A stretch of 64,000 nt of DNA, from assembly GCF_004010195.1 (NCBI RefSeq), contig NC_057718.1, forward strand, positions 50,050,450 to 50,114,449, given 5' to 3'. The notes below the pieces were generated by a model, which ran no database searches, was not told where the DNA came from, and was given only the letters and a program-made list of their open reading frames with translations. Positions 1 to 64,000 of the stretch are shown piece by piece. Made by a program: the position numbers and the translations under genes. The number at the start of each line of letters is the position of its first letter. The stretch's first letter is position 1. This stretch comes from Chiloscyllium plagiosum. Taxonomy: Eukaryota.

Positions 1-320
1 CCTCATTTCCCCTCCACCCACCTTACCCCAGTTCCAACTTTCCAGCTCAGCACTGCCCTCATGACCTGTCCTACCTGCCAATCTCCCTTCCCACCTATCT
101 GCTCCACCCTTCCCTCTGACCTATCACCTCCATCCCCACCCCCATTCACCTATTGTACTCTTTGCTACCTTCTCCCCAGCCCCACCTCCCCATTTATCTC
201 TCCACCCTGGAGGCTTCCTGCCTCTATTCCTGATGAAGAGCTTTTGCCCGAAACGTCAATTTTCCTGCTCCTCGGATGCTGCCTGACCTGCTGTGCTTTT
301 CCAGTACAACTCTGATCTAA
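1..320 (+). mobile_element. Penelope-like element (PLE) terminal fragment with minimal hammerhead core
   Basis: C-rich tract, then CTGATGA(230-236)-AGAGCTTTTGCCC-GAAA(250-253)-CGTC and 'ggatgctgcctgacctgctgtgcttttccag'. The same motif recurs at 16853 and, on the minus strand, near 15480 and 48650. Confidence 0.75.
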
Positions 321-8954: not shown

Positions 8955-9327
8955 GGATGTTAACTCTGATTTTGCTCTGCAGATGCCACTAGACTGCCCC
9001 AGGAATGACAGCTGACCCTAAGGGAAGCAGATATTGTGGAAGCCCAACGGAGCCGACTTCAATACCCCCTGACGAACCCACAGTCATGACCGGGCCCAGG
9101 ACCCCAGTGGGAGCATTCACTTACCTTCCGGAGTAGGAGACTTCCATCACCAACACCTGGGATTGACTAGAAGCAAGCTCCTAACCAGGGAATGTGGGAG
9201 ACACACAGGCCTGCAGGTGAGAGTGAAACAACGTGGTTTCAATATACGCCCTGTCCAACATTCTGCTGGCAAATGTCCAAGCCGCTGAGAACAAAATGCA
9301 TAAACTTAAAGTTAGAGTTGGGGGATC

Positions 9328-9338
9328 CAAGATGGCGG
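9328..9338 (+). promoter_or_regulatory. YY1-type motif at the L1 5' end
   Basis: CAAGATGGCGG a few nt from the element start, as in the 5'UTR of mammalian L1. Confidence 0.6.
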
Positions 9339-9490
9339 CGATCCAGCAAGTCTGAGTCTACAGTGCTCCTCCCAAGACTTGGGCAAAGTGGGCCACCCAC
9401 CCCCACCACACTCACCAAATCATTTAAAATAGCTGTTTAATTTAATTAGTTGCTTAGTATTAAATTTAAACAATCTAATCTTTAGTAAAA

Positions 9491-10355
9491 ATGACTAAAG
9501 GGAAGGGAGCCCACAGCTCTCAGCAAGCAGGGACCCACCCCCCCCCCACCCCCCCCACCCTCTCCAGCTGCAGCAGAGGCGTCCGCAGCCGCTTCGGGGG
9601 ACTTACCTACAGTGGCGAGCCTCGTGGAAATCATCTCCAAACTGGATGCGAAGATTGCACTTTCATTGAAGAATCCCGAAGTCGATGGGACTCACTCTCG
9701 GCCGTGCTGCAAAAGCACGACCAAGACATTAAAGAAATCGAGCGCCGAGTTGGCGGAGCTAAAAGCCGCGACCTCTGAAACTTCAGCGCAATCGGCCGTC
9801 GATCAGGTCCGGACTCTCGAACAGCGAGTCGGGACCTTAGAGAATCATATTGATGACCTCGATAATCGAGGTCGCCGACAAAATATTCGTTTGCTGGGCC
9901 TTCCCGAACGGGAAGAGGAAGGCCAGCTTACAGTGTTTCTTGAGCAGTGGCTGCCACAGCTTTTAAATCTGGAGGCTGGATCAGGCCAGGTAAGGGTAGA
10001 ATGGGCCTACCGGGTCGCAATACGTGGCCCCGGCTCAAACCAGTGGCCCCGCCCGGTCCTGTTCCGGCTGCAGAGCTATAGGGAGAGGCAGATACTCCTC
10101 GAAGCCTCTAGAAATCTTGGAAAAATTTCCCAAGCCATGATCTATAAAGGATCCAAGATCATGTTATTCCAGGACTTTTCCCCGGCTCTGGTCTGAAAGA
10201 GGAAGACATTCGATGAGGCGAAGAATTGTTTAAGGGACTTAAATATTCAGTACTCCTTACGCTACCCAGCGATGCTACGCTTTAACCATGAAGGATCCAT
10301 GTATAACTTTGGATCGCCAGAAAAGGCTAAGGAATGTTTTGACTCTCTAAGATAA
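9491..10355 (+). pseudogene. L1 ORF1p (coiled coil + RRM + CTD), frameshifted, with internal stop
   Basis: LENHIDDLDNRGRRQNIRLLGLPE...PRPVLFRL...IMLFQDFS. Continues past the TGA at 10194-10196 (KRKTFDEAK...YSLRYPAMLRF) to TAA at 10355. Confidence 0.9.
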
Positions 10356-10535
10356 ATTGTAAGAGACAATGGATGTTGGTTTGTCTTTCCCCGACTCCGG
10401 TTTATATCCCCCCCCCTTTTTCTTTTTTCTTACCTTACTGTTTAATATTATCTTGGGGGGTGGGGAGAGGGATTTATTTATTTGTTCTCTATTTAACGAT
10501 TTTCTCCCCCCCTTGGAGTTTTTTTTTATTATTCT

Positions 10536-10594
10536 ATGTATGTGTGTATGTATATATATGTGTGTGTGTATATATATATATATGTATATATATA
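10536..10594. repeat. (TA)n/(TG)n microsatellite in the L1 inter-ORF spacer
   Basis: tgtatgtgtgtatgtatatatatgtgtgtgtgtatatatatata... Confidence 0.9.
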
Positions 10595-11121
10595 AGCCGG
10601 GGGGGTTTAGTTAATGTTGGTGGGGGGAGGTGGTTACCTTATTCTATTTTACCTCTGTCTCTAGGAGCGGGGTTGTTTTCCCTTGCTATTTTGTATCATT
10701 ATATTTAATTATTATTTGTTGAGGTTGTAATTTTATAGTTTCATAGTTATATATGTTTATACATGGTATTAATATTACCAAATACATCCAGGTGTGGGTG
10801 GGGATTGGGGTAGGGGTAGGGTGCTCATTGTTAACTCTAGCTTTGTATTATATCTGAATTCTCCTCATCCTTTGAGGATCGCCTGGGTCAAGGGTGGGGC
10901 ATTGGTTGGGAGCGAATAGGATGGACCTTTGGAAAGGAAGTGATACCCCCTGGGAACAAGGGGGAAAATGTCCATTTAAATACGTTTTATATTTTTTTTA
11001 TTATTTAGAAATAGTTTTTTATTATACTCTTGTGAATGTATTAGAGAGCCTTTTATACTCTATGTTCGGGATGTTTTGGATAGGGTTTCCCCTCCCGAGG
11101 GGTCTTGGATTTTGGATGATT

Positions 11122-14100
11122 ATGGTTGATCAGTCGGTTAAGTGGTGCACCTGGAATGTCAAGGGGAGTAATTCGCCAGTCAAAAGGAAGAAAATATTAT
11201 CAAATCTTAAGAAAGAAAGAGTTGATATAGCTCTCCTACAGGAGACACATCTGTTGGATAAAGAACACTTGAAATTACGACAGGGTGGATTTGATCAGGC
11301 CTTTTTTTCTTCTTTTAGCTCAAAAAGTAGGATAGTTGTTATTCTTGTTCGGAAGAATTTCCCTTTCAAAATCCTAAATCAGACAAAAGACGAATCTGGA
11401 CGAGATATTCTGATTAAAGCCCTTATAAATGGAGAGGAATATGGGATTTTAAATTTGTACTGCACCCCGGCACACCCCTTTAAATTTATAATGGAAGCCT
11501 TCTCAAAATTGATGGCTCTTGGTGCCCGTCATACAATTATAAGGGGCGACTTTAATAGTATTATGGATCTGGAAATAGATAGGATTCCCAAGATTACTGC
11601 AGGAGTATCTCCCAGATCGAGACAATTGGTGGATCTGAACAAAGAATTAGGATTAGTAGATATATGGCAATGTCTTCATCCACAGGGCAGAGATTTTTCT
11701 TTTTACTCCAATCCACATAAATGTCATACCAGAATTGATATGTTTTTGCCCACTCGATTTTTAAAAATTCCATATCATCCTGTAAAATAGGCAGTATAGC
11801 AATTTTCGACCACGTGCTGTATATATGGAAATAAAGGCGAGGAACAATGGGACATCCCCTCGGCATTGGCGTATGGACCCCTTCCTAGTAAATTTGTAAA
11901 GTACTTCTCTCAAAAATTTAAAACTTTTTTAGAAATTAATTTAGGTACGGCTAGCAACCCATCAATGATGTGGGAGACCATCAAAGCTTACGCGTGAGGT
12001 TTGATCATCTCCTACTCAGGGACCCAGAAAAAATGAAAGGGAGAACAATAGCGTCTGCTCGAAGCTCTCTTAAAAGCACCTGAAACAGCAGACGCTGATA
12101 GACCTTCTATTATCAAATTGCAAAGGATTACGGCCCTTAGGACAGCTCTAAACACTACGCTTACCCAAACGGCTAAGAGGGAAATATTATTTGCAAAACA
12201 AAGGTTAAATGAATTTGGCGACAAACCGGGTAGATACTTAGCATTTCTTGCAAAGAATAAAAAGGCCCCTCAAACTATCATGTCTATCAAGGAAAGTACG
12301 GGTATTTTGACTCATGATCATAAAAAGATTAATACAATCTTTAGAAAATTTTATTCTGATTTATATAAATCGCAAGATTGTGAAGACAGGACTAGGAGGA
12401 TGCAATCATTTTTTAAAAATTTGACCTTTCCGGGCCTAACTCCAGAACAGGTATCGGTCTTAAATACTCCCCTAACAGTCCAAGAAATACTTGATGCAAT
12501 CAGGCAACTTCAGAGCGGTAAGGATCCTGGCCCAAATGGTTTTCAAGTGGAAATCTATAAAGAATTTACAGAAATATTGGCTGGTCCACTTATGGGCATG
12601 TATAACTATGCATATAATCAGGGCTGTCTCCCGTCTTCGCTGAAAGAGGCAAATATCTCTCTTATCCTTAAAAAAGAAAAGGATCCAGAAGATTGTACGT
12701 CATACAGACCAATATCCTTGCTAAATGTAGATTTTAAAATCCTTTCTAAAACGTTAGCATTGAGACTAGAAAGGGTACTGCCACATATCATAAAGGAGGA
12801 TCAGACGGGGTTTATTAAGGGCCGTAGATCATCCAATAATATAAGAAGGGTTTTGAATATGATTCAAGCCTGCCATCAGGGAAAGATATCAGGAGTAGTA
12901 GTTTCATTAGACATGGAAAAGGCATTTGATAGGGTTGAATGGTCATATTTGTTTTACACATTGGAAAGATTTGGCATTGGAAAGGTGTTTACCAAATGGG
13001 TCTCAACATTGTATAGTGATCCCAAAGCAGTTGTGGTTACCAATGGATTAGGTTCGGATAGCTTCAGTGTGGGTAGGGGCTACCATCAGGGATGTCCTCT
13101 CTCGCCATTGTTATTTACGCTAATAATTGAACCACTAGCAGAAGCTATACAGGCTGATCCTAATATAACGGCCCCGAGGATTGGTACAGGTAAACATAAA
13201 ATCACTCTGTATGCAGATGATGTTCTTGTATTCCTCAGTAATCCTCTGATGTCCGTGCCTCGCTTAATCCAAGTTATTAATACATTTAGTGCATTCTCAG
13301 GCTATAAAATTAATTTTCCAAATCGGAGGCTATGCCAATGGGTGGCCTTGCTATGATACCCCATTTAGTGGACAGATCCCATTTTCCCTTTCGTTGGTCC
13401 CTGGAGGGTTTCTTATATTTAGGTATTTTTATTACCCCAGTATTTGGTCAGTTATACAAGGCTAACTTTGTGCATTTACTGGAAAGGATAAGGCAGGACC
13501 TCCAGCGATGGGGAGACCTTCCAATTTCCTGGCTGGGTAGAATAGCACTCATTAAAATGAATTTCCTGCCCCGTCTCCTATACCCTATGAGAATGCTTCC
13601 AGTGATGCTGCCGAGGCTGGCATTACGTAAATTATATGGCTGGTTGGGTTCCTTTATCTGGAATCATAGACGGCCCCTCATTAAGCTGAAGAAGCTACAG
13701 CTTCCACAGGCAAGGGGAGGATTGGACTTCCCAGATTTTAGGAAATATCAGTTAAGTTCCTTATTAAGTTACATAGCTGATTGGGTCCTGTTTGATCCAC
13801 AATCAATCTGGCTGGACATCGAAGCTTCTCAAGTAAAATGCCCACTTATTAACCTTTTATTTTCAGACAAGAGGAAAATCATTACGGATCACTGTAAAAA
13901 CCCTATAATACTAAATACAATTAAAGCTTGGAATATAATGCGGCAAAATGAGGGCAACTCACATAAAACATCCCCCTACGCGCCGATAGTGGGAGCATGG
14001 GGATTCCAACCGAGGTTTACAGATGCCACTTTTAAACTCTGGTGATCCAGGGGTATCTCATGTCTCGGGGACGTATTTGAAGATGGGGTCCTGATGTCTT

Positions 14101-14914
14101 TTGAACAGCTGTGTCAGAAATTCGGATTACCCAATGGAGACCTCTATCGATACTTCCAAATTTGAGATTATATACAGAAGAAGACTACGTTATTAGATAG
14201 TCTTTATAAATCAGATAGACAATGTAGAGTACTACGACCAATGGGGGTATCTTCCATTAGTACTATTTATCATTTACTACATGATGAAGTATCGGGAGAT
14301 ATGGACAATCTGCTTAAAACATGGGATCAGGAACTGGGACTAGAAATCCCTATAGAAACGTGGAATGACATTTGAGAAAACACTAGAAGAATCACCATCT
14401 GTAACAGAACTCAGGCTATCCAGCTGAAGATAGTTCATAGGGCCCATATAGCACCGGATCGATTGGGAAAATTTAAGGCAGGGGCATCCCCAATGTGTTC
14501 CAAATGTAAAATAGAGGTGGAACTCTTGTACATTGTCTATGGACCTGTCATAAGATCCGTAGATACTGGACTAAAGTAGCAAGTGCCCTGACAGAAATTT
14601 TAGGAATGGAAATTAAAGTGGACCCCGTAACTCTCCTTTTGGGCTTTTCGAACTTATCCTCCCTGGACATGCATGGGAAGAGACTATTTTCTATTCTCTC
14701 TTTCTGTGCAAGGAAAAATATTTTGGTAAACTGGGTGGCTGAAGGCCCCCCTGGCCTTTTAAATTGACACAGATTAATTATGGAATGTATTCCCCTTGAC
14801 TTCCTTACAAATATGGTACATCGAAAGACCGAATTATTTTATAAAATATGGCAGCCCTTCTTGAATTATATGAATACAGATATTTCGGCTATCATAACAA
14901 GGGCTTTTATTTAA
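11122..14914 (+). pseudogene. L1 ORF2p (APE endonuclease, RT, Cys-rich domain), multiple stops and frameshifts
   Basis: TWNVKG, DIALLQETHL, GDFN, YRPISLLNVDFKIL, SLDMEKAFDRVEW, QGCPLSPLLF, LYADD; C-terminal CSKC...HCLWTC near 14494-14550. Confidence 0.95.
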
Positions 14915-15448
14915 TTGAGATTACGAACCTGGCTGGTCCAGGGCCCCTTGGGAGAGGAATCCCGCACGAATACGGGTTTTGTTACATTTGATGTTAACAC
15001 ATTCCGAGCATGTATCTCACTACCCAATTTCTGTGTTATCCGCTGTTTTTTTTCTCTCTTTCTCTTATTTGAATAATGTAAGAGACTTAAATATACACAC
15101 TGGTTAGTTGTAGGTTAGATTAGTAGTTAATTGAGTTTTGTTTTTTTTCTCAGTATTTTTCTTTTGTTAAATTTTGTTAGAGTTTATTGTATATCAATGT
15201 TTGTACTTGAGAGTTTTGTTTATTTTTGTAATCTTGTAAAAATGTTAAATTTCTAATAAAAATATCTATATAAAAAAAAGATTGCCTAACTATGTCTGAG
15301 TTTTAGAAGATTTGTTTGATTTAATTATATAAAATGTTAAAATCTTTAAATTTTCATTTTGCTAAAAGTTGTAATTTGTTCTTATTTATCATTGCAATAA
15401 TTTTTAATAATAGAAAATAAAAATAAAAAGAAACCAGCAGTCAAAAAA

Positions 15449-15685
15449 AAAGTTAGAGTTGATAAAGCGTGGTGCTGTATCTGAGGAGCAAGAGAGTTGA
15501 TGTTTTGGGCAGGGCTCTTCTTCAGGACTGGGAGGGAGAAAGTGGCTGAGAAATAAATAGGAAGGGGTTGTGGTGCTGGGGAAAGGTGATGGGATGGCAA
15601 GAGGTGGTAAAAGGTAGAAAGTGATGATGATAGGTCAGTGGGAAGTGTGGAGCAGATAGATGGGAAGGAAGATGAATAGGTAGGT
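15449..15685 (-). mobile_element. PLE fragment (host of the L1 insertion, itself inside Rex1/Babar)
   Basis: 'gaggagcaagagagttgatgttttgggcagggctcttcttcagg' plus a purine-rich tract is the reverse complement of the 1-320 family. Confidence 0.7.
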
Positions 15686-16469
15686 AGATTTACCTTCCAG
15701 AGGGAGCTGAGAGACTGCTGTGTGTTCTGTTTTACAGCAACATGGCTCACATCTTATATGCCTGACTATGCCTTACAACCTGAGGGTTTCTCCATACATT
15801 GCATGGACTGCATGGCATCCTCGGGTAAGGCCAAGGATGGTGGAGTTCGCCTCTTGATCAACACTTCCTGGCGCTCAGACATGGCGGCCCTAATGAGTTA
15901 CTGCTCTCTGGACTGGGAAATGCCTTCCCATTACCTGCCATGTGAGCTTGCTTCTGCTATCCTGACAGCAGTCTACATATACCACCCCAGGCGAAAGTGA
16001 AGAATGGTCTGGATGAAAGATACACCATTACAAATGCACTTGAGACAGAATACCTTGAGACCTTATTCATCACAGCTGGTGATTTCATTCAGACCAACCT
16101 CAAGAGGAGACTGCAAAAATACCATCAACATGTCTCCTGTCTCACCAGCGAGCTGGACATCCTTGACCATTGTACACAACCATCAAAGATGTTTACTTCT
16201 CCATATCCTGTTCGCACCTTTGAAAATCAGATCACAACGTTGTGTTCTTCCTCCCGGCTTACAAGCAGAAGTTGAAATGTATGGACCCAATACAGGAAGG
16301 AGCACAGCGCTCGTCTGAGGCAGTGAAAGAGCTTTTGCGGTCTGCTCAGAATCATTGGACTGGTCCATATTCAAGAATTCAGCGGCCAATCGAGATGAGT
16401 ATGCCATCACCGTCATGGACTTCATTAGCAAGTGTGTAGAGGGTTTTGTGCCAAAGAAGTCAATCCATA

Positions 16470-16778
16470 TTAGATTACATTACAGTGTGGAAACAGGCCC
16501 TTCGGCCCAACAAGTCCACACCGACCCGCCGAAGCGCAACCCACCCATACCCCTACATTTACCTCTTACCTAACATTATGGGCAATTTAGCATGGCCAAT
16601 TCACCTGACCTGCACATCTTTGGACTGTGGGAGGAAACCGGAGCACCCGGAGGAAACCCACACAGACACGGGGAGAACGTGCAAACTCCACACAGTCAGT
16701 CACCTGAGGCCGGGAATTGAATCCGGATCTCCAGCGCTGTGAGGCAGCAGTGCTAACCACTGTGCCACCGTGCCGCCC
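16470..16778 (-). mobile_element. HE1-like tRNA-derived SINE, young
   Basis: Head GGGCGGCACGGTGGCACAGTGGTTAGCAC with A/B boxes, CpGs retained, CR1-like 3' tail. Confidence 0.95.
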
Positions 16779-28225: not shown

Positions 28226-28454
28226 ACTTGCTGATCAGACCACCTATGCCTTCCTCCAGATCATTTATGTATATCACAATCAACAGTCGTCCTAATATGG
28301 ATCCCTGTGGAACACCACTGGTCACAGTTCTCCATTTTGAGACTTGCTGATCAGACCACCTATGCCTTCCTCCAGATCATTTATGTATATCACAATCAAC
28401 AGTCGTCCTAATATGGATCCCTGTGGATCCCTGGTCACAGTTCTCCATTTTGAG
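28226..28454. repeat. Tandem duplication (116 + 113 bp) within the CR1
   Basis: acttgctgatcagacc...ttctccattttgag occurs twice back to back. Confidence 0.95.
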
Positions 28455-29492
28455 AAACTCACTTCCACTACAACTCACTGTCTCCTGTGGCCCAGCTAGT
28501 TCTTTAGCCAATCAGCTAGTACACCCTGGACATCATGCGAATTCACTTTCTCCATCAGCCTACCATGGGGAAACTTATCAAATGCCTTACTGAAGTCCAT
28601 GTATGTGACATCTACAACCCTCCCCCCTTCAATCAACTTTGTCACTTCCTCAAAGAATTCTATTAAGTTGGCAAGACATCACCTTCCGTGCACAAAACCT
28701 TGTTGCCTATCACTGATAAGCCCATTTTCTTCCAAATAGGAATAGATCCTATCTCTCACTATCTCCTCCAGTAGCTTCCCTACCACTAACTTCAGGTTCA
28801 CCGGTCTATAATAATCTGGATTATCCCTGCTACCCTTCTTAAACACGGGGACAATATTAGCAATTCTCCGGTCCTCCGAGACCTCACCCATGTTTAAAGA
28901 TGCTGCAAAGGTATCTGTTAAAGCCCCAGCTATTTCCTCTCTCACTTCCCTCAGTAACCTGGGATAGATCCCAAGCGGACCTGGGGACTTGTCCACCTTG
29001 ATGCCTTTTAGAATACACAACATTTCCTCCCTCCTTATGCCAACTTGACCTAGAGTAATCAAACATCTATCCCTCATCTCAACATCCGTCATGTCCATCT
29101 CCTCGATGAATACTGATGCAAAGTACTCATTAAGAATCTCACCCATTTCTCTAACACCATGCATAACTTTTCTCCTTTGTCCTTGAGTGGCCAATCCTTT
29201 CTCTCGTTACCCTCTAGCTCCTTATATCTGAATAAAAAGCTTTGGGATTTTCCTTAACCCTGTTGACTAAAGGATTCTGGGTAACCCAAGATGGAGGATG
29301 GGAAAATATTCTGGCTGTAACAGCTGCTCCTTTATTGAGGTATTTTAGGTGTAGGAAGTGAATTCCAGGAGCAGTAATTACTGTTTTATATGCTATTGCA
29401 TTGTTTTGGAACTTTGGGAAAAAAATTCAAAACAACAGCAGTTTTAAAAGGGAGAAGATCAGACAAAGGAAGCACATGGTGAGGTCAGTGCA

Positions 29493-29527: not shown

Positions 29528-30457
29528 CTGACACTGCCTTTGCTGTTTGAATTCATTTATCGCTGGACATCGGAGTGCATCTAGGAAAATTAACAGTGAA
29601 TTTCACGACTAATCTTGGAGGAACAGTTTGGGAGAAGTTCACAGCACAGAATCAGATAATTTAATTGTTTTAAGTTGCTTACAGAAAGTCTCAGTAGTGA
29701 GTAGAGTGGGTTCTTTCTTGATTATATGTTTTTTGAGATATGTCTCTTGTTTAAACTTAAAATATAAGCCATAATTATTAATCTAACCCAGGGCAGTGTT
29801 TTGTAAAGGAAAAAGACGGTGTTATTTTCTGGGTCTGTAGATTGTGAAGGAGCAAAAATGGCCTTCAGCAGAGTGAAATGTGCTTCTTGTCAGATGTGGG
29901 AGTTCAAAGAGAGTTTAAGGGTTACTGTGGATTATATCTGCCATAAATGCTGTTGGCTGCGAATCTTATCAGATTGAATGGATCGGTTGGAGAGACAGTT
30001 AGAAGTAATGAGGAATTTTCAACAGCAACAGTATGTGATGGATGGCAGTTATAGGAAGGGGGTAAAGTCTCAGATACAGTCACATAGATGGGTTAACTCC
30101 AGGAAATGTAAGAGAGGTAGGCACCTTGTGCAGGTGTGTTCTGTGGCTATCCCCATATCAAACAAGTATGCTGCTTTGGAAAATGTAGGGGGTGATGGAT
30201 TCTCAGGGGAACGTATAATGAACAACCAAGTTTCTGGCTCTCATGCAATGAGGTGTAAATTGGGTTCCAAGAGATCAGTTGTGTTAGGGGATTCTCTAGT
30301 CTGAGGTACAGACAGACATTTCTGTGGCCAGCAGCAAAAAAGCAGAATGGTGTGTTGCTTCCCTGGTGCCAGGATCAAGGATGTCTCAGAGAGGGTGCAG
30401 AATGTTCTCAAGGGGGAGAGGGGCCAACAAGAAGTCATTGTCCACATTGGAACCAAC

Positions 30458-30600
30458 NNNNNNNNNNNNNNNNNNNNNNNNNNNNNNNNNNNNNNNNNNN
30501 NNNNNNNNNNNNNNNNNNNNNNNNNNNNNNNNNNNNNNNNNNNNNNNNNNNNNNNNNNNNNNNNNNNNNNNNNNNNNNNNNNNNNNNNNNNNNNNNNNNN
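30458..30600. other. Assembly gap (143 N)
   Basis: Run of N inside CR1 ORF1. Confidence 1.
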
Positions 30601-33521
30601 CCAGGGAGACAGTGAGGAAAGAGATCAATCTGAGACTGGTACAGTTGAGAACAGAAGTGAGTCAAATAGTCAGGGCAGGCAGGGACAGAGTAGGACTAAT
30701 AAATTAAACTGCATTTATTTCAATGCAAGGGGCCTAACGGGGAAGGCAGATGAACTCAGGGCATGGTTAGGAACATGGGACTGGGATATCATAGCAATTA
30801 CAGAAACATGGCTCAGGGATGGGCAGGACTGGCAGCTTAATTTTCCAGGGTACAAATGCTACATGAAGGATAGAAAAGGAGGCAAGAGAGGAGGGGGAGT
30901 GGCGTTTATGATAAGGGATAGCATTACAGCTATGCTGAGGGAGGATATTCCTGGAAATACATCCAGGGAAATTATTTGGGTGAAACTAAGAAATAAGAAA
31001 GGGATGATCGCCTTATTGGGATTGTATTATAGACCCCCGAATAGTCAGAGGGAAATTGAGAAACAAACTTGTAAGGAGATCTCAGCTATCTGTAAGAATA
31101 ATAGGGTAGTTATGCCAGCGGCTTTTAACTTTCCAAACATAGACTGGGACGGCCATAGTGTTAAGGGTTTAGATGGAGAGGAATTTGTTAAGTGTGTGCA
31201 AGAAAATTTTCTAACTCAGTATGTGGATGTACCTACTAAAGAAGGTGCAAAATTCTACCTATTCTTGGGAAATAAGGCAGGGCAGGTGACTGAGGTGTCA
31301 GTGGGGGAGTGGTGATGGAAAAGGATAGACCAGGTCTAAAAGTTGAAGTTCTAAATTGGAGAAAGGCTTATTTTGACGTTATTAGGCAAGAACTTTCGAA
31401 AGCTGATTGGGGACAGATGTTCACAGTAAAGTGACGACTGGAAAATGGGAAGCCTTCAGGAATGAGATAACGAGAATACAGAGAAAGTATATTCCTGTTA
31501 GGGTGAAAGGAAAGGCTGGTAGGTGTAGGGAATGCTGGATGACTAAAGAAATTGAGGGTTTGTTTAAAAAAAAGAAGGAATCATGTGTAAGGTATAGACA
31601 GGATAGATGAAGTGAACCCTTAGAAGAGTATAAAGGCAGTAGGAGTATACTTAAGAGGGAAATGAGGAGGGCAAAAAGGGGCCATGAGATAGCTTTGGCA
31701 AATAGAATTAAGGAGAATCCAAAGTTTTTTTCACAAATACTTTAAGGACAAAAGGGTAACTAGGGAGAGAATAGGGCCCCTCAAAAATCAACAAGGCAGC
31801 CTTTGTATGGAGCCGCAGAAAATGGGTGAGATACTAAACGAGTGTTTTGCATCAGTATTTACTGTGGAAAAGGATATGGAGGGTATAGAATGTATGGAAA
31901 TAGATGGTAACACCTTGCAAAATGTCCGTATTACAGAGGAGGAAGTGCTGGATGTCTTGAAACACATAAAGGTGGATGAATCCCCAGGACCTGATCAGGT
32001 GTACCCTAGAACTCAGTGGGAAGCTAGAGAAATGATTGTTGGGCCTCTTGCTGAGATATTTGTATCATCGATAGTCACAGGTGAGGTGCTGGAAGACTGG
32101 AGGTTGGCTAATGTAGTGCCACTGTTTAAGAAGGGCGGTAAAGACAAGCCAGGGAACTATAGACCAGTGAGCCAGATGTCGGTGGTGGGCAAGTTGTTGG
32201 AGGGAATCCTGAGGGACAGGATGTACATGTATTTGGAAAGGCAAGGACTGATTAGAGAAATGTGCGTGGTAAATCATGTCTCACAAACTTGATTGACTTT
32301 TTTGAGGAAGTAATAAAGAGGATTGATGAGGGCAGCGCAGTAGATGTGATCTATATGGACTTCAGGAAAGGGTTCAACTGGTTAGCAAAGTTAGATCTCA
32401 TGGAATACAGGGAGAACTAGCCATTTGGATACGGAACTGGCTCAAAGGTAGAAGCCAGAAGGTGGTGTGGAGGGTTGTTTTTCAGTCTGGAGGCCTGTGA
32501 CCAATGGAATGCCACAAGCATCGGTGCTGGGTCCTCTACCTTTTTGTCATTTGCATAAATGATTTGGATGCGAGCATAAAAGGTACAGTTAGTAAGTTTG
32601 CAGGTGACACCAAAATTGGAGGTTTAGAGGACAGCAAAGAGGGTTACCTCAGATTACAACAAGATCTTGACCAGATGGGCCAATGGGCTTAGAAGTGGCG
32701 GATGGAGTTCAATTTAGATAAATGCGAGGTGCTGCATTTTGGGAAAGCAAATCTTAGCAGGACTTATACACTTAATGGTAAGGTCCTATGGAGTTTTGCT
32801 AAACAAAGAGACCTTGGAGTGCAGGTTCATAGCTCCTTGAAAGTGGAATTGCAGGTAGATAGTATAGTGAAGAAGGCGTTTGATATGCTTTCCTTTATTG
32901 GTCAGAGTATTGAGTACAGGAGTTGGGAGGTCATGTTGCGGCTGTACAGGACATTGGTTCGGCCAGTGTTAGATTATTGTGTGCAATTCTGGTCTCCTTC
33001 CTATCGGAAAGATGTTGTGAGACTTGAAAGGGTTCAGAAAAGATTTACAAGGATGTTGCCAGGGTTGGAGGATTTGAGCTACAGGGAGAGGTTGAACAAG
33101 CTGGGGCTTTGTTCGCTGGAGCGTTGGAGGTTGAGGGGTGACCTTATAGAGGTTTACAAAATTATTGAGGGGCATGGATAGGATAAATAGACAAAGTCCT
33201 TTTCCTGGGGTCAGGGAGTCCAGAATTAGAGGGCATAGGTTTAGGGTGAGAGGGGAAAAATATAAGATAGATCTCAGGGGCAACTTTTTCACGCAGAGGG
33301 TGGTACGTGTATGGAATAAGCTGCCAGAGGAAGTGGTGGAGGCTGGTTCAATTGCAACATTTAAGAGACATTTGGATGGGTATATGAATAAGAAGGGTTT
33401 GGAGAGATATGGGCCAGGTGCTGGCAGGTGGGACTAGATTGGATTGGGATATCTGGTTGGTACGGATGGGTTGGACTGAAGGGTCTGTTTCCATGCTGTA
33501 CATCTCTATGATTCTATGACT

Positions 33522-33905
33522 CTATGACCCCATTTAACCTTCTTAATTCATCATTTCAGATTGGTCCTACATTCCCAATGTTCTTCCAAAACTTCATCTG
33601 TCTTCAGTCATTTCGACCTTAAGTATGCTTCCTTTCTCCTCTTCGTTCATCACACAATTTCACTTGTCATCCTTGCTTCCTTATCTTGCCATTTCTATTC
33701 CTCATTTTCACAGGATCATGTCTCTCCTGAACTCTATCAATGTTTCTTTAAAAGTCTCCAACATATCAAATGTGGATTTATCTTCAAACAGCTGCTCCCA
33801 ATCTACACTCCCCGGGTCTTGCCGAAATTTGGTATAATTGGCCTTCCCCCAACTTAGCACTCCTCCTTTAGGACCACTCTCACCTTTTGTCGATGAGTAT
33901 TCTAA
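33522..33905 (-). mobile_element. Upstream continuation of the 27160-29271 CR1
   Basis: 'gacccatttaaccttcttaattcatcatttcagattggtcctac' continues the EN-RT linker broken at 29271. Confidence 0.75.
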
Positions 33906-34004: not shown

Positions 34005-34640
34005 GTCATCATCATCATTGACAGTTTCTGACAGGCAAAAATGACTCTCTTCCACTCTCAGGTGAGTCTAAAGGTGGCTGTATGGACTGATGAAGTTTCT
34101 GCAGATCCAGTCATACTTGGAGGCCAGAAGGTGGTTGTGGGAAGGGATAATAATAAGAGAGATCTTATTATTATTTCCTATTAAAACCTCTGGCCAAATT
34201 TTCTCTGATAACTTACACGTTCAACATTTGACTGGCTTCACACAAGACTATGCCAGGCACTGATTTTGAAGCTACAGCTTTTCTGCAGCAGTCCTCCTTG
34301 TAAAACAGCAGATTTTGACATTAAAAGTAAATTAATATCAATATTTCATTGTCCTGATCCATCCTCATTGTAATTAATGTCATAAGTTATTCGTTTCTGT
34401 ATAATAGTCCTTCAATCCTTATCAGTAACCGATGATCCTTGTTCATAATCCCTCTATCGTCTCACTGTTATTCAACCCTAATCCAAACCAAGGTGGTTGA
34501 TGCCTCCCTGGATGCTCCTCTGCTACTTTGGACAGGCTTGGACCAGTGATTCACAGGTGTCGTTGTGGGAATGCCGCACCTCACCAAGGAGGCTTTGACG
34601 GTATCCATGAAGCATTTCTTCCATTCATACGGGATTCCCC
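34005..34640 (-). mobile_element. RTE-clade LINE 3' fragment interrupted by the inverted duplication
   Basis: Spacer encodes KKCFMDTVKASLVRCGIPT/DTCESLVQACPK*QRSIQGGINHL. Left flank encodes KYDWICRNFISPYSHL*TH (decayed C2H2 finger) followed by an (ATG)n tail. Confidence 0.75.
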
Positions 34641-34984
34641 TGCTGTTTCAGTTTGGATTAGGGTTGAATAACAGTGAGACGATAGAGGGATTATGAACAA
34701 GGATCATCGGTTACTGATAAGGATTGAAGGACTATTATACAGAAACGAATAACTTATGACATTAATTACAATGAGGATGGATCAGGACAATGAAATATTG
34801 ATATTAATTTACTTTTAATGTCAAAATCTGCTGTTTTACAAGGAGGACTGCTGCAGAAAAGCTGTAGCTTCAAAATCAGTGCCTGGCATAGTCTTGTGTG
34901 AAGCCAGTCAAATGTTGAACGTGTAAGTTATCAGAGAAAATTTGGCCAGAGGTTTTAATAGGAAATAATAATAAGATCTCTCTT
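34155..34984. repeat. Inverted repeat: 334-bp arms (34155-34488, 34651-34984), 162-bp spacer
   Basis: Base-by-base reverse-complement comparison showed no mismatch. Confidence 0.95.
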
Positions 34985-36539
34985 TTTAGGTAGAAAATCT
35001 CTTGCAGACATGTCTGTTTTACAATCCAGCAATACATAAGGTCAGGATTTTTAAAAAAGTTTCAACTTTTCAAATGGCATTGAATACTTTGGTGCATACC
35101 AGGCTCGGTTTGAGCATTAGTGCAGTTGAAGAACTATCTCCTAGTTACCCCTGTGTTGCAGGTAAATACTCTCTCTCACTCTGAGTGCTGCCAACCAGAA
35201 CCACTTAACATAAAGCAGGACTTGTTCACACCCTGGATATAGGAATTCGATCAGAACTGAATGGCATCAGAAGTAAAAAATCTCAACCAAATACAAAACA
35301 ATCATGAAGCCAACTGTTCACCTACCAACATCAACCATTAATCTTCAATGCAAAGCCTGAAGCGTTCAACTATCTGGCTGTTTTTTGAACTTTTAGTTTT
35401 TTGAACTTACCTCTTAGACCTGACCTGCATGCACATATGTTGCATTACTATTTCTATGCATGTTTATGTAAATAAATGTACACTTTATGTTAATACAAGG
35501 AAGTCTGATTAAATTTGCTCCTTTTAAAACATCGATACATTTGGGTCTAGGAGAAAGCTATCCATAAGGGAGAGCATCCTTTATGAAATAACATTATTGC
35601 AACTGTAAAAGGAAAGGGTGACAAAAGAAAGGAAACCAGTTCATTCCTCTTCACCTGTGAACTAGATATTTTTGGGATATCCCATCTTGAATCGTAAGGA
35701 GTTGTGGAACCTTGTCAGGGATCTGATTGTAACTTACTTGAATAGCAATCAAATTATTATGAAATGCCAGTAATCTAATGAATTAATAGAGCATTAGCCA
35801 TTAGCAAGTCAATATATTAATAGAACTGCAAGTCCAGCAAATTAATAAGTTAATACAGAAGTGGGCTAACCATGACAAATCAATTAATAGAGCAATAGCA
35901 ACGGGCAAATAAAGAATAGTGAGAATATTAGCAAATGTATAAATTACTACAATATAAATTAATGTAGCATACCCAAAATAAATGTATTAATAGATTTGGT
36001 TCTGTTCATAAATTAATAAAATAATAGAACATTTAACACAAGCGTATCAAAAAGTTAATAAATTAATAGAATATTTAGCACAAGCAAATCAAAAAATTAA
36101 TAAAATGGGCACTAGCAAATTAAAAAGAAATATAGCAGTGAACATAATGCATAACAGCAATTTAATAAATTAGTGGAAAACGAGGAACACAACTGTTATG
36201 AATGTATCTCATTTTGGAGGGCAGAAAACTGGAATTGGACAAGCAATGTTTATCAAAGCAGTTGCAAATTGGTAATAATACTTCACAGGGTTCTACACTG
36301 TGGATATGTAATGGCTATTTTCTTACGGTCTTGTACCAGTACTGGCTTGGAGGTAAAACTGTGATGGGAATGAGGAAGAGAATGGAAATGGGGAGAGGTC
36401 TAATACATGGCACACCAAGTCCAGCCAAGAGACCATATAGACTATACAGAAAGAAACAGTCAGTAGGTATGATCTGCATACGAGGGCACTCCTAATAAAT
36501 CCTTCATGATTGCATATCTGAATTGGATGATGCAAAAGG

Positions 36540-36954: not shown

Positions 36955-37400
36955 ATAGTGAGGACTTCAGATGCTGGAAAATCAGATTTGATAAAGTGTG
37001 GAGCTGGAAAAAGTACAGAAGGTCAAGCAGCATCAGAGGAGCAGGATAAACGATGTTTCAAGTCAGAATCTTTCATCAGGACAAAGGAATGGATAATGAT
37101 CAGCCTGAAAGAATCAATAGCTGCTAATGGGAACCATGAGTGGCTGACAATGGCTGACAATGGGTGCATGGTAGCAGCCAATGTGAGGACATGTCTTGGG
37201 GTTGGAGAAAGGGCATGGAAGAAGGTGCTCAGGTTCTAAAATTACTGAACTCGATACTGAGTACTGGTGACTGCAGGGTCCCTAAGATGTTGTTCTTTGA
37301 GCTTGTGCTGAGGTTTGGTGGAGCACTGCAGCAAGCCCGAGACAGAGATGTTGGCCAGGGAAACACGGTGGTGTGTTGAAGTGGCAGACAACCGGAAGCT
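36955..37400 (-). mobile_element. PLE fragment (GIY-YIG C-terminus + terminal repeat)
   Basis: HFNTPP..., LGTLQSPVLSIEFSNFRT*, then a cctgatgaaag...gaaacatc-like motif. Confidence 0.75.
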
Positions 37401-60497: not shown

Positions 60498-63400
60498 GAT
60501 TCTGGGTAATTCAAGATGGAAGACAGGAAAAACGTCTGGCTGTAAGAGCTGCTTCTTTTTTGAGGTATTTTAGGAATTGCAGGTGATTTCCTCAAATTCC
60601 AGGAGCAGTAATTACTGTTTTATATGTTGTTGCATTGTTTTGGAACTTTGAAGAAAAAAAATCAAAACAACTGCACTTAAAAAGGAGGAAGAGAACAAAG
60701 GTAGAGACCATGTGATCAGTGAGAGAGAGAGAAAAAAGGAATCCTACACTGCTGTCTGACACAGCAGTGAATCTGCACAGCTACTGTCTTTGCTGTTTGA
60801 GTTCAAGTATTCCTGGACATCAGAGTGCTTTTCAGAAAAAAAATAACAAACAGCGAAATTCACAGCTGACCTTGGAAGAACCTGTGTGAGAGAGCTCACA
60901 GCACAGGAACAGATAAGTGCATGGCTTTTAAGTGTAACCTTGGTGTCTCTTTTTAATAGTGAGTAGAGTGCATTCTTTTTGGTTATATGTTTTATTAAGG
61001 TCTGTCTTTTGCTTAAAATTTGAAAATATAAACAATATAGGTACTAAGTTAGCTTGGAACAGTGTTTTTTTAGAGCAGTAAGACAGTGCTATTTTCTGTA
61101 GGTTCTTGAGATGCAAAGATGGACTTTAGTAGAGTGATGTACTGTTCCTGCTGGATGTGGGAGGTTAGGGAGAGTTTCCATGTTAGTGATGATTATGTCT
61201 GCAGTAAGTGTGTTTGGTTACGAATCCTATCAGATCATATGGATCAGTTGGATTGGCAGTTAGAGACAACCAGGAATTTACAGGAGCTAGGGGTGTGATG
61301 AATGGCAGATATAGGTGGGAAGAAAAACCGCAGATACAGTCAGGTAGATGGGTTACTGCCAGGAAAGGTAGGAGAGGGAGGCCAGGAGTGTAGGAGTCTC
61401 CTGTGGCTATTCTCCTCTCAAACAAATACGCTGTTTTGGAAAACGTCAGGGGTGATGGACTCACAGGGGAATGTAGCATGAACTGCCAAGTTTCATTACC
61501 GAGTCTGGTTTGAATGTGACTTGTAGAAGAAGGACAGATTGCACCTAAATTGGAAGGGGACTAATATATTGGCAGGGAGATTTGCTAAAGCTGCTCAGGA
61601 GGACTTAAACTAGCAAGTTGGTGGGGGAGGGAGGGGGGGAGGGGTAGGATCCAGGGAAATAGTGAGGAAACTGATCAGCCTGAGACTGGTATAGTTGGGA
61701 AAAGGGGCAAGTCAAACTGTCAGGCCAGGCAGGAATGAAACTGAGAATGAGATAAACTGCATTTATTTCAATGCAAGAGGCCTAACATAGAAGGCAGAAG
61801 AACTCAGGGCATGGTCAGGAACATGGGACTGGAATATCATGGCAATTACAGAGACATAGCTCAGGGATGGACAGGACTGGCAGCTTAATGTTTCAGGATA
61901 CAAATGCTATAGGAAAGATGGAAAGGGGACAAGAGGTGAGGGGGTGTGGTATTTTTGATATGGGACAACATTACGACCATACTTAGGGAGGATATTCCTG
62001 GGAATACGTCCAGGGAAGTTATTTGGGTGGAACTGAGAAATAAGAAAGGATGATCACCTGACTGGGATTATATTATAGACCTCTCCAGTAGTCAGTGGAA
62101 AATTGAGAAACAAATTTGTAAGGATATCTCAGTTATCTATAAGATTAATACTGTGGTTATGATTGGGAAGGTGTCAGTGGGGGAGCACTTTGGGGGCCAG
62201 TGACCATAATTCTATTAGCTTTAAAATAGTGATGGAAAAGGTTAGACTAAAAGTTAAAGTTCTAAATTGGAGGAAGGCCAATTTTGACAAGATTAGGCAC
62301 AAACTTTCAAAAGTTAATTTGGTGCGGATGGTCACAGGTAAAGAGATGGCTGGAAAATGGGAAGACCTTAAAACTGAGATAACGATAGTCGAGAGACAGT
62401 ATCTACCTGTTACAGTGAAAGGCAAGTCTAGTAGGTGGAGGGAATGCTGGATGACCAGAGAAATTTAGGTGTTGGTCAAGGAGAGTAAGGAAGCAAATAT
62501 CAGGTACAGACAGCGAGATCGAGTGAATCCCTATAAGTGTATAAAGGCAGTAAGAGTATACTTGAGGGAAATTAGGAGGGCAAAAAGGGGACATGAGGTA
62601 GCTTTGGCAAATAGGGCTAAGGAGAATCTAAAGGGATTTTATAAACACATTAAGGACAAAGGGATAACTGGGGAGACAATAGGACCCCTCAAAGATCTAC
62701 GTGTGGAACTCCAGGAGATGAAGGAGATACTAAACAAGTATTTTGTATCAGTGTTTACACTAGAGAAGGACAAGAAAGATATAGAATGTGGGGAAGTAGA
62801 CAGTGACATCTTAAAATATCCATACTACAGAGGAGGAGGTGCTGGATGTCTTAAAATACATAAACGTAGATGAATACCCAGGACCTGATCAGGTGTACTT
62901 GAGAATTCTGTGGGAAGGTGGGGAAGTGATTGCTAGGCCCCATGCTGAGATATTTGTATCACTGGTAGTCACAGGTGAGGTGCCAGAAGACTGGAGGTTG
63001 GCTAACATGGTGCCACCATTTAAGGAAGGTGGTAAGGAAAAGCCAGGTAACTATAGACTGGTGAGCCTGACATCGGTGGTGGGCAAGTTGTTAGAGGGAA
63101 TCCTGAGGGACAGGATTTGCATGCATTTGGATAGGCAAGAACTGGTTGTGGATAGTCAACATGGCTTTGTGTGTGGGAAATCATGTTTCACAAAATTGAT
63201 TGGGTTTTTTGAAGAAGTAGCAAAGACGATTGATGAGGGCAGGGGAGTGAACGTGATCTATATGGACTTCAGTAAGACGTTCGACAAGGTTCCTCATGGC
63301 AGATTGGTTAGCAAGGTTAGATCTCATGGAATACAGGGAGAACTAGCCACTTAGATGCAGAACTGGCTCAAAGGTAGATAACAGTGGGTGGTGGTGGAGG

Positions 63401-64000
63401 GTTACGATTGGTACTGAGTCACTGCTTTTCATCATTTATATCAATGATTTGGATGTGAACATAGGAAATATGGTTAGTAAGTTTGCAGATGACACCAAAA
63501 TTGGAGTTGTAGTGGACAGCGAAGGAGGTTACCTCAGATTACACTGGATTCTTGATCAGATGGGCCAATGGGCTCAGGAGTGCCAGATGGAGTTTAATTT
63601 AGATAAATGCAAGGTGCTGCAATTTGGAAATGCAAATCAGAGCAGAACTTATACACTGAATGGTAAGGTCCTGGGTGTGTTGTTGAACAAAGAGACCTTG
63701 GAGTGCAGGTTCATAGTTTCTTGAAAGTGGAGTCGTGGGTAGATAGGATAATTAATTGAGTTTAGGAATTGGGAGGTCATGTTGCAGCTGTACAGGACAT
63801 CGGTTAGGCCACTGTTGGAATATTGTGTGCAATTCTGGTCTACCTTCTACAGGAAAGATGTTGTGAAACTTGAAAGGGTTCAGAAAAATTTACAAGGATT
63901 TTGCCAGGGTTGAGCTATAAGCTGGGGCTATTTTTCCTGGAGCGTCTGAGGCTAAGAAGTGACTTTAGCGAGGTTTATAAAATCATGAGGGGCATGGATA
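60498..64000 (+). mobile_element. Second near full-length CR1, with internal deletions, running off the window
   Basis: 5'UTR homologous to 29272; ORF1 ATG at about 61119; EN (YFNARG) and RT (YMDFSKTFDKVPHGRL, KFADDTKIG). Confidence 0.95.

Follow-up and report, generated by a model that had tools for sequence, protein, structure and literature searches.

A candidate 3' transduction by a decayed L1 element with two A-runs in the shark Chiloscyllium plagiosum

Structure of the insertion

We analysed a 64-kb stretch of DNA from the shark Chiloscyllium plagiosum, referred to here as the window. It contains a decayed L1 retrotransposon with an unusual 3' end. The L1 body of 5.96 kb (9321-15279) was followed by a 163-bp segment, which we call the tag, then by a second A-run, and only then by the target-site duplication (TSD). 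This arrangement is probably the product of partnered L1 3' transduction, in which flanking sequence of a source element is copied together with the element. All coordinates are given in window numbering and all results concern this one locus. The parts of the insertion outside the L1 coding region were as follows.

9308..9320, + strand: 5' TSD, 13 bp, cut site TT/AAAG, exact match to 15449-15461
15272..15279, + strand: first A-run (A8), the normal 3' end of the L1 family and a presumed remnant of the donor tail
15280..15442, + strand: tag, 163 bp, low-copy, putative transduced 3' flank of a source element
15416..15427, + strand: two AATAAA signals, 21 and 15 nt upstream of the second A-run
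15443..15448, + strand: second A-run (A6), continuous with the first AAA of the TSD, a presumed tail of the retrotransposed RNA
15449..15461, + strand: 3' TSD, identical 13-mer

The initial annotation of this DNA had described a two-tail layout of AATAAA, A8, 163 bp, two AATAAA, an A-run and the TSD, and every coordinate of it was confirmed. The sequence scan placed AATAAA at 15255, 15416 and 15422. The 13-mer AAAGTTAGAGTTG had two exact occurrences in the 64 kb, at 9308 and 15449, and the match could not be extended on either side. As a chance control, the bases before an anchor were compared with a 600-nt stretch 6 kb downstream. A match of at least 13 nt was obtained for 0 of 3000 random window anchors, and one of at least 10 nt for 19 of 3000. 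After the first A-run, matches to the 5' flank that might represent a TSD did not exceed 4 nt. One TSD pair enclosed both the L1 and the tag, at an endonuclease-like site. The target TT/AAAG, also read in the initial annotation, was found in the sequence and is one letter from the consensus site of PMC5131818 (papers with PMC numbers are cited here for the part of their text that was available).

The tag had a GC content of 20% and a CpG count of 0. The second A-run began at a CA, 15 nt past the last AATAAA, which is canonical poly(A) geometry. It formed an A9 (15443-15451) whose last three letters are the start of the TSD, so that the second tail proper was 6-9 nt long. The pattern AATAAA-N10-30-A6 occurred seven times in the window on both strands, and three of the seven were at the end of this L1. 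Other sites with AATAAA and a following A-run were at 713 and 36057 (+ strand) and at 1923 and 11023 (- strand); they are possibly tails of other retroposed pieces.

Features of the L1 element

The L1 body of 5959 bp consisted of a 5' untranslated region (UTR) of 170 bp, open reading frame (ORF) 1 of 865 bp, a spacer of 760 bp, ORF2 of 3799 bp and a 3'UTR of about 357 bp.

9321..9490, + strand: L1 5'UTR, 170 bp, with a G-run at its start, its end set by the ATG at 9491 (presumed start codon)
9491..10355, + strand: ORF1, L1-type (coiled coil, RRM and C-terminal domain), with one frameshift and one stop
10356..11115, + strand: inter-ORF spacer, 760 bp, T-rich, with a TA/TG microsatellite
11116..14914, + strand: ORF2, endonuclease and reverse transcriptase, dead
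14915..15271, + strand: family 3'UTR, T-rich, own AATAAA at 15255-15260, very high contig depth to 15279

The 5' end started with a G-run, and the element was therefore considered full-length. The motif CAAGATGGC at 9328, after the G-run within the L1 start (9321-9340), presumably resembles the YY1 site at the mammalian L1 5' end. All four PDB matches of ORF1 were human LINE-1 ORF1p, with a best E of 7e-4. In Pfam, ORF1 gave Tnp_22_dsRBD with E 0.039, short of the cut-off, and another Pfam search of it gave no match. ORF2 contained the Pfam domains PF03372 (E 2e-12) and PF00078 (E 1.2e-35). In the PDB search it matched human L1 ORF2p with E 3.5e-81, compared with E 1.9e-23 for R2. The decay of ORF2 amounted to nine stops and two frameshifts relative to the intact relative P0002 (tblastn). 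Of the 120 relatives listed for ORF2, the best had 55-58% identity, and the named ones were mostly teleost proteins.

The traits of a vertebrate L1 were found together: an L1-type ORF1, an N-terminal APE-type endonuclease with an L1-like reverse transcriptase, AATAAA with poly(A), and a TSD. Judged from these sequence features, the element is a vertebrate L1-clade LINE, and L1 was distinguished from Tx1 by the ORF1 type and the PDB matches. Within the window there was no other copy of the L1 or of the tag, the best tag matches having E of at least 0.012. Rfam gave 0 matches over 9000-16500. Scanning metagenome contigs for exact matches to the start of the tag and to the 3' end of the L1 gave 0 and 0.

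Target site and older elements

Two older elements surrounded the insertion.

9094..9316, + strand: left part of the host element of the insertion, endonuclease-like, older and decayed
15462..15688, + strand: older interspersed repeat fragment, 227 bp, already in the target
15689..16468, + strand: right part of the same host element

Residues 119-188 of protein P0121 aligned to 9094-9319 with E 5e-6 and 0.01, the latter for residues 165-188 at 9248-9319. The following residues of P0121 aligned to 15638-16265 (E 1e-53 for the match chain), and P0122 aligned to 15671-16468. The host reading resumed at about 15689, at the residue next to the last one of the left part. The best named relative of the host element was a Hemiscyllium ocellatum protein with 61% identity. 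The 227-bp repeat fragment matched window positions 70-277 at 70% and had high depth in the sequencing runs described below. From 15449, 24 of 29 letters matched 36978-37006, which is another copy of the 227-bp repeat. The first codons of the TSD fitted the host frame. On these alignments, the TSD seems to straddle the junction of the host element and the repeat. A TSD that spans the junction of two older elements would make the L1 the last to arrive, with the tag inside its TSD pair. The region 9094-16468 can be described as three nested insertions: the endonuclease-like element, whose relative P0121 carries the name of a shark protein, the 227-bp repeat inside it, and the L1 at their junction.

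The host frame continued across the site, and the tag would therefore have been absent from the target before insertion. This indirect evidence suggests that the pre-insertion site consisted of the older element and the older repeat and left no space for the tag. The initial annotation had raised the opposite case, an empty site that already holds the tag. The resumption of the aligned host frame across the insertion argues against that case.

Depth of the tag and the end of the L1 family

Sequencing data were used to compare the tag with the L1 family. Four of the 24 public runs listed were aligned to 14624-15853 at 85% likeness, with a bin break at 15280. X1 and X5 were DNA contigs from organism A (the same species, with X5 from another sample), and X10 was DNA contigs from organism B (a related species). 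X21 consisted of raw poly(A) RNA reads from organism A, of which about 2 in 100 of the run were read. Statements on single pieces refer to 24 listed of 12142, and those on loose ends to 24 listed of 960 rows. Positions 15404-15439 were masked as repeat in the alignment.

The summed contig depth, which is not a copy number, was very different on the two sides of the boundary. Over 16 bins of the L1, the median depths were 140130 in X1, 104251 in X5 and 102085 in X10, and the minima were 23933, 13278 and 15372, respectively. In the tag bin 15362-15402 the depths were 24.1, 30.5 and 22.5. The lowest L1 bin was thus 435-993 times above the tag bin in all three DNA runs. The RNA read depth in X21 went from 182 to 2.8 across the same boundary. 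In addition, the loose ends at 15276-15279 were heterogeneous, with an agreement of 0.38-0.46 in X5 and X21 among the rows listed. An agreement of just this size meant that there are many copies with different flanks. The L1 family ends at the first A-run, and the tag is low-copy and not family sequence.

We considered whether the tag is an ordinary L1 3'UTR, with the family or a large subfamily ending at 15442 and A8 lying internally. The initial annotation had named this as a way in which its claim could fail. The T content of the tag (0.47) was like that of the UTR (0.44-0.53), and fish L1 3'UTRs are T-rich and of variable length (PMC5381506). However, the depth dropped by three orders, at least 435-fold, exactly at 15280 in three DNA runs and two species at 85% likeness, and the copies ended heterogeneously at 15276-15279. 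There would be a handful of tag carriers at most, which would itself be a transduction lineage. An ordinary 3'UTR was thus considered highly improbable.

Two other treatments of the tag were discarded. When the tag was compared, as a possible decayed duplicate, with the 3'UTR, the spacer and the 5'UTR of the L1 itself, its scores were reached by 54/300, 87/300 and 25/300 shuffles, respectively. A tag copy number from depth (24.1 in X1 against 17.6-19.4 in the flank, 30.5 in X5 against 6.6-8.6) was not adopted, since depth is unfit as a copy number.

Two features of the L1 family were also observed. In all four runs, a joint left out 66 bases of the 3'UTR (15009-15076), which represents a shorter-UTR variant of the L1 family in both organisms. 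The RNA reads of X21 piled up on the L1 3' end at 15198-15279, mostly with the first mate on the + strand, and a T-run loose end lay before 15238. This pile probably came from oligo-dT primers that annealed to antisense copies within other transcripts.

The tag outside this locus

Single contigs were followed through the tag. In X5, record 22 (612 nt, minus strand) covered 15272-15403 with two differences, corresponding to record positions 611-480. The numbering of minus-strand records follows their own strand, as is evident from records 8 and 24, both of which extend past the right end of the stretch. Upstream, record 22 aligned through A8 and ended one letter later, 9 letters before the tag. 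Downstream, it had 479 more letters that were not aligned to the flank of this locus. It was judged to leave this locus because the depth at 15567-15607 was 8.1, compared with 30.5 for the contig. The flank of this locus was covered in X5 by separate records, and nothing was aligned at 15440-15443. In X10, record 15 (287 nt) covered 15279-15403 with 1 difference in 125. It had 137 unaligned letters downstream and 25 upstream, and again nothing was aligned at 15440-15443. Record 6 of X1 was 150 nt long and started exactly at 15280. From its limits we infer two loci that share just that stretch. At 15355, 3/3 RNA reads of X21 carried the letter of X5 and not that of the window.

These results indicate a second locus in both species, where the tag runs into other DNA. 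The initial annotation had proposed that the tag came from the flank of a source element elsewhere. The contig coordinates agree with this in so far as they place the tag at a second locus. A donor L1 was not seen there among the pieces listed. In X5 one is hinted at by an A-run and a contig end, and in X10 there was no sign of one. A second short piece at 15321-15354 was present in X1 and X10 (depth about 15.7 and 9.1) and absent in X5; it is possibly a chance AT-rich match.

The same contigs bear on the assembly itself. If the L1 end had been misjoined to unrelated AT-rich DNA, the junction of the L1 tail and the tag would be an artefact. None of the pieces listed spanned this junction, and X5 and X10 were empty at 15440-15443. 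However, a mis-join would not give a perfect TSD match 6.1 kb away together with a continuous host frame. The tag and flank contigs of X1 had 0 differences from the window among the pieces listed. X1 alone also showed extra depth in the bin 15403-15443, amounting to 69 depth-letters. Spread over four letters this is about 17, which is consistent with a junction contig of this locus if the depth lies at 15440-15443. An artefact of this kind was considered very improbable.

Proposed mechanism

We propose partnered L1 3' transduction. A source L1 elsewhere would have been transcribed from its 5' end, reading through its own weak AATAAA and A-tail. The read-through RNA would have taken in 163 nt of unique AT-rich flank and would have been cut and polyadenylated 15 nt past the flank AATAAA, at a CA. 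Judging from L1 biology, the L1 ORF2p would then have nicked TT/AAAG inside the older composite repeat. Reverse transcription would have been primed on the new terminal poly(A), and the whole 6.1-kb RNA would have been copied, leaving the 13-bp TSD. The initial annotation had claimed an apparent L1 3' transduction at this locus, and the claim drew support from the architecture, the family end at the first A-run and the low-copy tag and, more indirectly, from the tag-free target and the tag at another locus. We put its probability at about 0.75.

Several observations weigh against this mechanism. No donor L1 was seen at the second locus among the 24 of 12142 pieces, and these also included no read or contig over the L1-tail/tag junction or over an empty site. 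In organism B (X10), a single A preceded the tag, and the 25 upstream letters did not lie on the L1 tail. This single A may represent the ancestral site before any L1 arrived, a tail collapsed in a way that calls for a gapped alignment, or a source locus where no L1 ever lay. The X1 contig stopped near 15429 and not at 15442. The source could be traced only to 15403, short of the cleavage site, with 15404-15439 masked. The second tail was short (6-9 nt), and the evidence came from one locus.

Some of these observations fit a template-switch chimera, which was the main rival. In such a chimera, an unrelated host transcript ending in the 163 nt of the tag would offer its poly(A) as the starting point of reverse transcription, which would then switch to the poly(A) tail of an L1 RNA of full length. 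It would give the same two-tail, one-TSD shape with a source locus that has no L1, and the tag contig of organism B indeed had no A-run upstream. In the same species, however, record 22 of X5 aligned through A8 next to the tag and then ended, as it would at a repeat tail. A host transcript was suggested by a few RNA reads on the tag (depth 2-3.8), whose first mate was minus, meaning sense RNA in the usual library layout. The 3/3 reads at 15355 with the letter of the other locus also suggested that the other locus is transcribed. However, these reads are few and were maybe primed on a genomic A-rich stretch, and no start or end peak was called in the X21 RNA, of which about 2 in 100 of the run were read. 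Template switching is known in non-mammalian LINEs, from the lizard U6 chimeras (PMC4476161). The LINE is the 3' partner in those chimeras, which is the opposite of the order found here. A template switch was therefore considered unlikely, although it deserves more weight than any other rival.

The two A-runs could also be the result of two events or of repair filler. The tag would have entered the L1 A-tail during or after insertion, either as a short independent retroposed fragment or as DNA captured in break repair, splitting the tail into A8 and A6. A8 and A6 could indeed be one divided tail. A-runs are L1 endonuclease targets, which makes the tail a plausible entry site. The L1 body was decayed, and the tag differed by 1-2 letters in about 130 from its other copies, as expected if the tag came later. 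However, the divergence of the tag was not significantly lower than that of the flank (1/125 compared with 15/351, Fisher p 0.08), and CpG is absent from the tag. In the source contig of the same species, an A-run was already present upstream of the tag. In addition, the tag lay in sense orientation and ended 15 nt past its own AATAAA at a CA, which filler does not predict. Two events were considered improbable, less so than an ordinary 3'UTR or an artefact. Partnered 3' transduction remained the preferred explanation.

Age of the insertion

The L1 body and its surroundings gave different impressions of age. In the L1 part, there were at least 15 variant rows (15 of 30 listed) in which at least 85% of the depth in all three DNA runs read another letter. 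The private differences of the L1, for example those at 14755, 14767, 15182, 15185 and 15232, were at least 2.3% of 656 bp. In contrast to the decayed L1 body, the TSD was perfect and the tag was 1-2 letters from its other copies. This may reflect a young insertion of an already decayed template. An old insertion is nevertheless sufficient, because the tag has no CpG and the divergence gap was not significant. Insertion polymorphism was not claimed, as absent junction contigs prove nothing.

A broader proposal is that shark L1s work in the mammalian 'relaxed' mode, in which any terminal poly(A) primes, even at a distance from the L1's own 3'UTR, and flanks are transduced routinely. This copy would perhaps be recent and polymorphic, with a dead source moved in trans. 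A recent, trans-moved copy would be in line with the decayed body, the perfect TSD and the absence of an aligned junction contig in the second individual and the related species. We regard this proposal as doubtful. If it were true, relaxed recognition would go back to the ancestor of jawed vertebrates and would not have begun in mammals. In the slowly evolving genomes of sharks, source elements and lineages of L1 could then be followed by their tags.

Other elements in the window

Apart from the L1 locus, an inverted repeat of 338 bp was found at 34151-34488 and 34651-34988, with arms 99.7% identical and 162 bp apart. Judged by its arms, this element, of the fold-back or terminal-inverted-repeat type, is very young. 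Endonuclease and reverse transcriptase frames were present in two long LINE copies that are related to each other and that we take to be CR1-like. They lay at 30305-33528 and 60498-64000, the first broken by the N-run of the window. Many shorter 3' fragments of these copies occurred elsewhere in the window. At 28226-28455, a decayed LINE contained a segment of about 115 bp that was duplicated in tandem, with 96% identity.

Significance

The locus most likely represents a known mechanism in a new animal group, in a single dead copy. The Ohshima review (PMC3747384) leaves it open whether fish L1 needs its own 3' end or the poly(A) tail alone. Priming 163 nt past the element end would be a trace, left in the genome of a cartilaginous fish, of priming directed by poly(A). 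Independence from the 3'UTR is unproven, because the UTR remains in the RNA. The bearing on when poly(A)-only priming arose is modest. The tag can serve as a barcode for the source element, and it is practicable to count L1s with two tails across whole shark assemblies. A dead copy with a non-coding tag of 163 bp has no evident function.

Comparison with known systems

Moran 1999, Goodier 2000 and Pickeral 2000 reportedly described partnered 3' transduction for the LINE-1 of mammals. In humans it is standard (PMC8232201, PMC5381506, PMC13009371), and about 20% of human L1s carry transduced flanks (PMC8232201). The shark copy resembled these elements in having a body with AATAAA and an A-run, unique sequence, a second signal and tail, one TSD and a TT/AAAA-like site. 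It was unlike them in its shark host and its non-mammalian layout (170-bp 5'UTR, 760-bp spacer and T-rich 3'UTR).

No report of L1 transduction in sharks or fish was found in a search by title and abstract start, mostly of non-subscription literature and with Repbase and supplements outside it, so that absence from print is not established. The available text of PMC5381506 covers zebrafish, frog, lizard and mammals, mentions transduction for mammals only and contains the word 'shark' 0 times. In PMC8455134, the one paper in which this word occurred along with the terms shark, LINE-1 and chondrichthy-, the 'transduction' of the available text is signalling. In the corresponding part of PMC4494074, only 5' transduction appears, as a possibility. 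Ohshima described mammalian L1 as 'relaxed', with the fish lineage still to be tested (PMC3472496, PMC3747384), and transduction is mentioned in the available part of neither paper. Non-LTR retrocopies are present in zebrafish and chicken (PMC5131818). Together with the lizard chimeras, these retrocopies suggested that relaxed behaviour outside mammals is not unexpected.

The shark element was similar to the teleost and frog L1s of PMC5381506 in its length of about 6 kb, its short 5'UTR, its long T-rich spacer and its poly-T 3'UTR with AATAAA and poly(A). Unlike those L1s, the shark copy was dead. The YY1 site is named there for mammalian L1, and the 5' termini of fish and frog differ. The locus was also similar to the U6-LINE template-switch chimeras of lizard, platypus and eutherians (PMC4476161), where foreign RNA and LINE RNA are joined within one TSD. 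However, those chimeras have the foreign piece on the 5' side of the LINE, whereas in the shark it was located 3' of the L1 and carried its own poly(A) signal.

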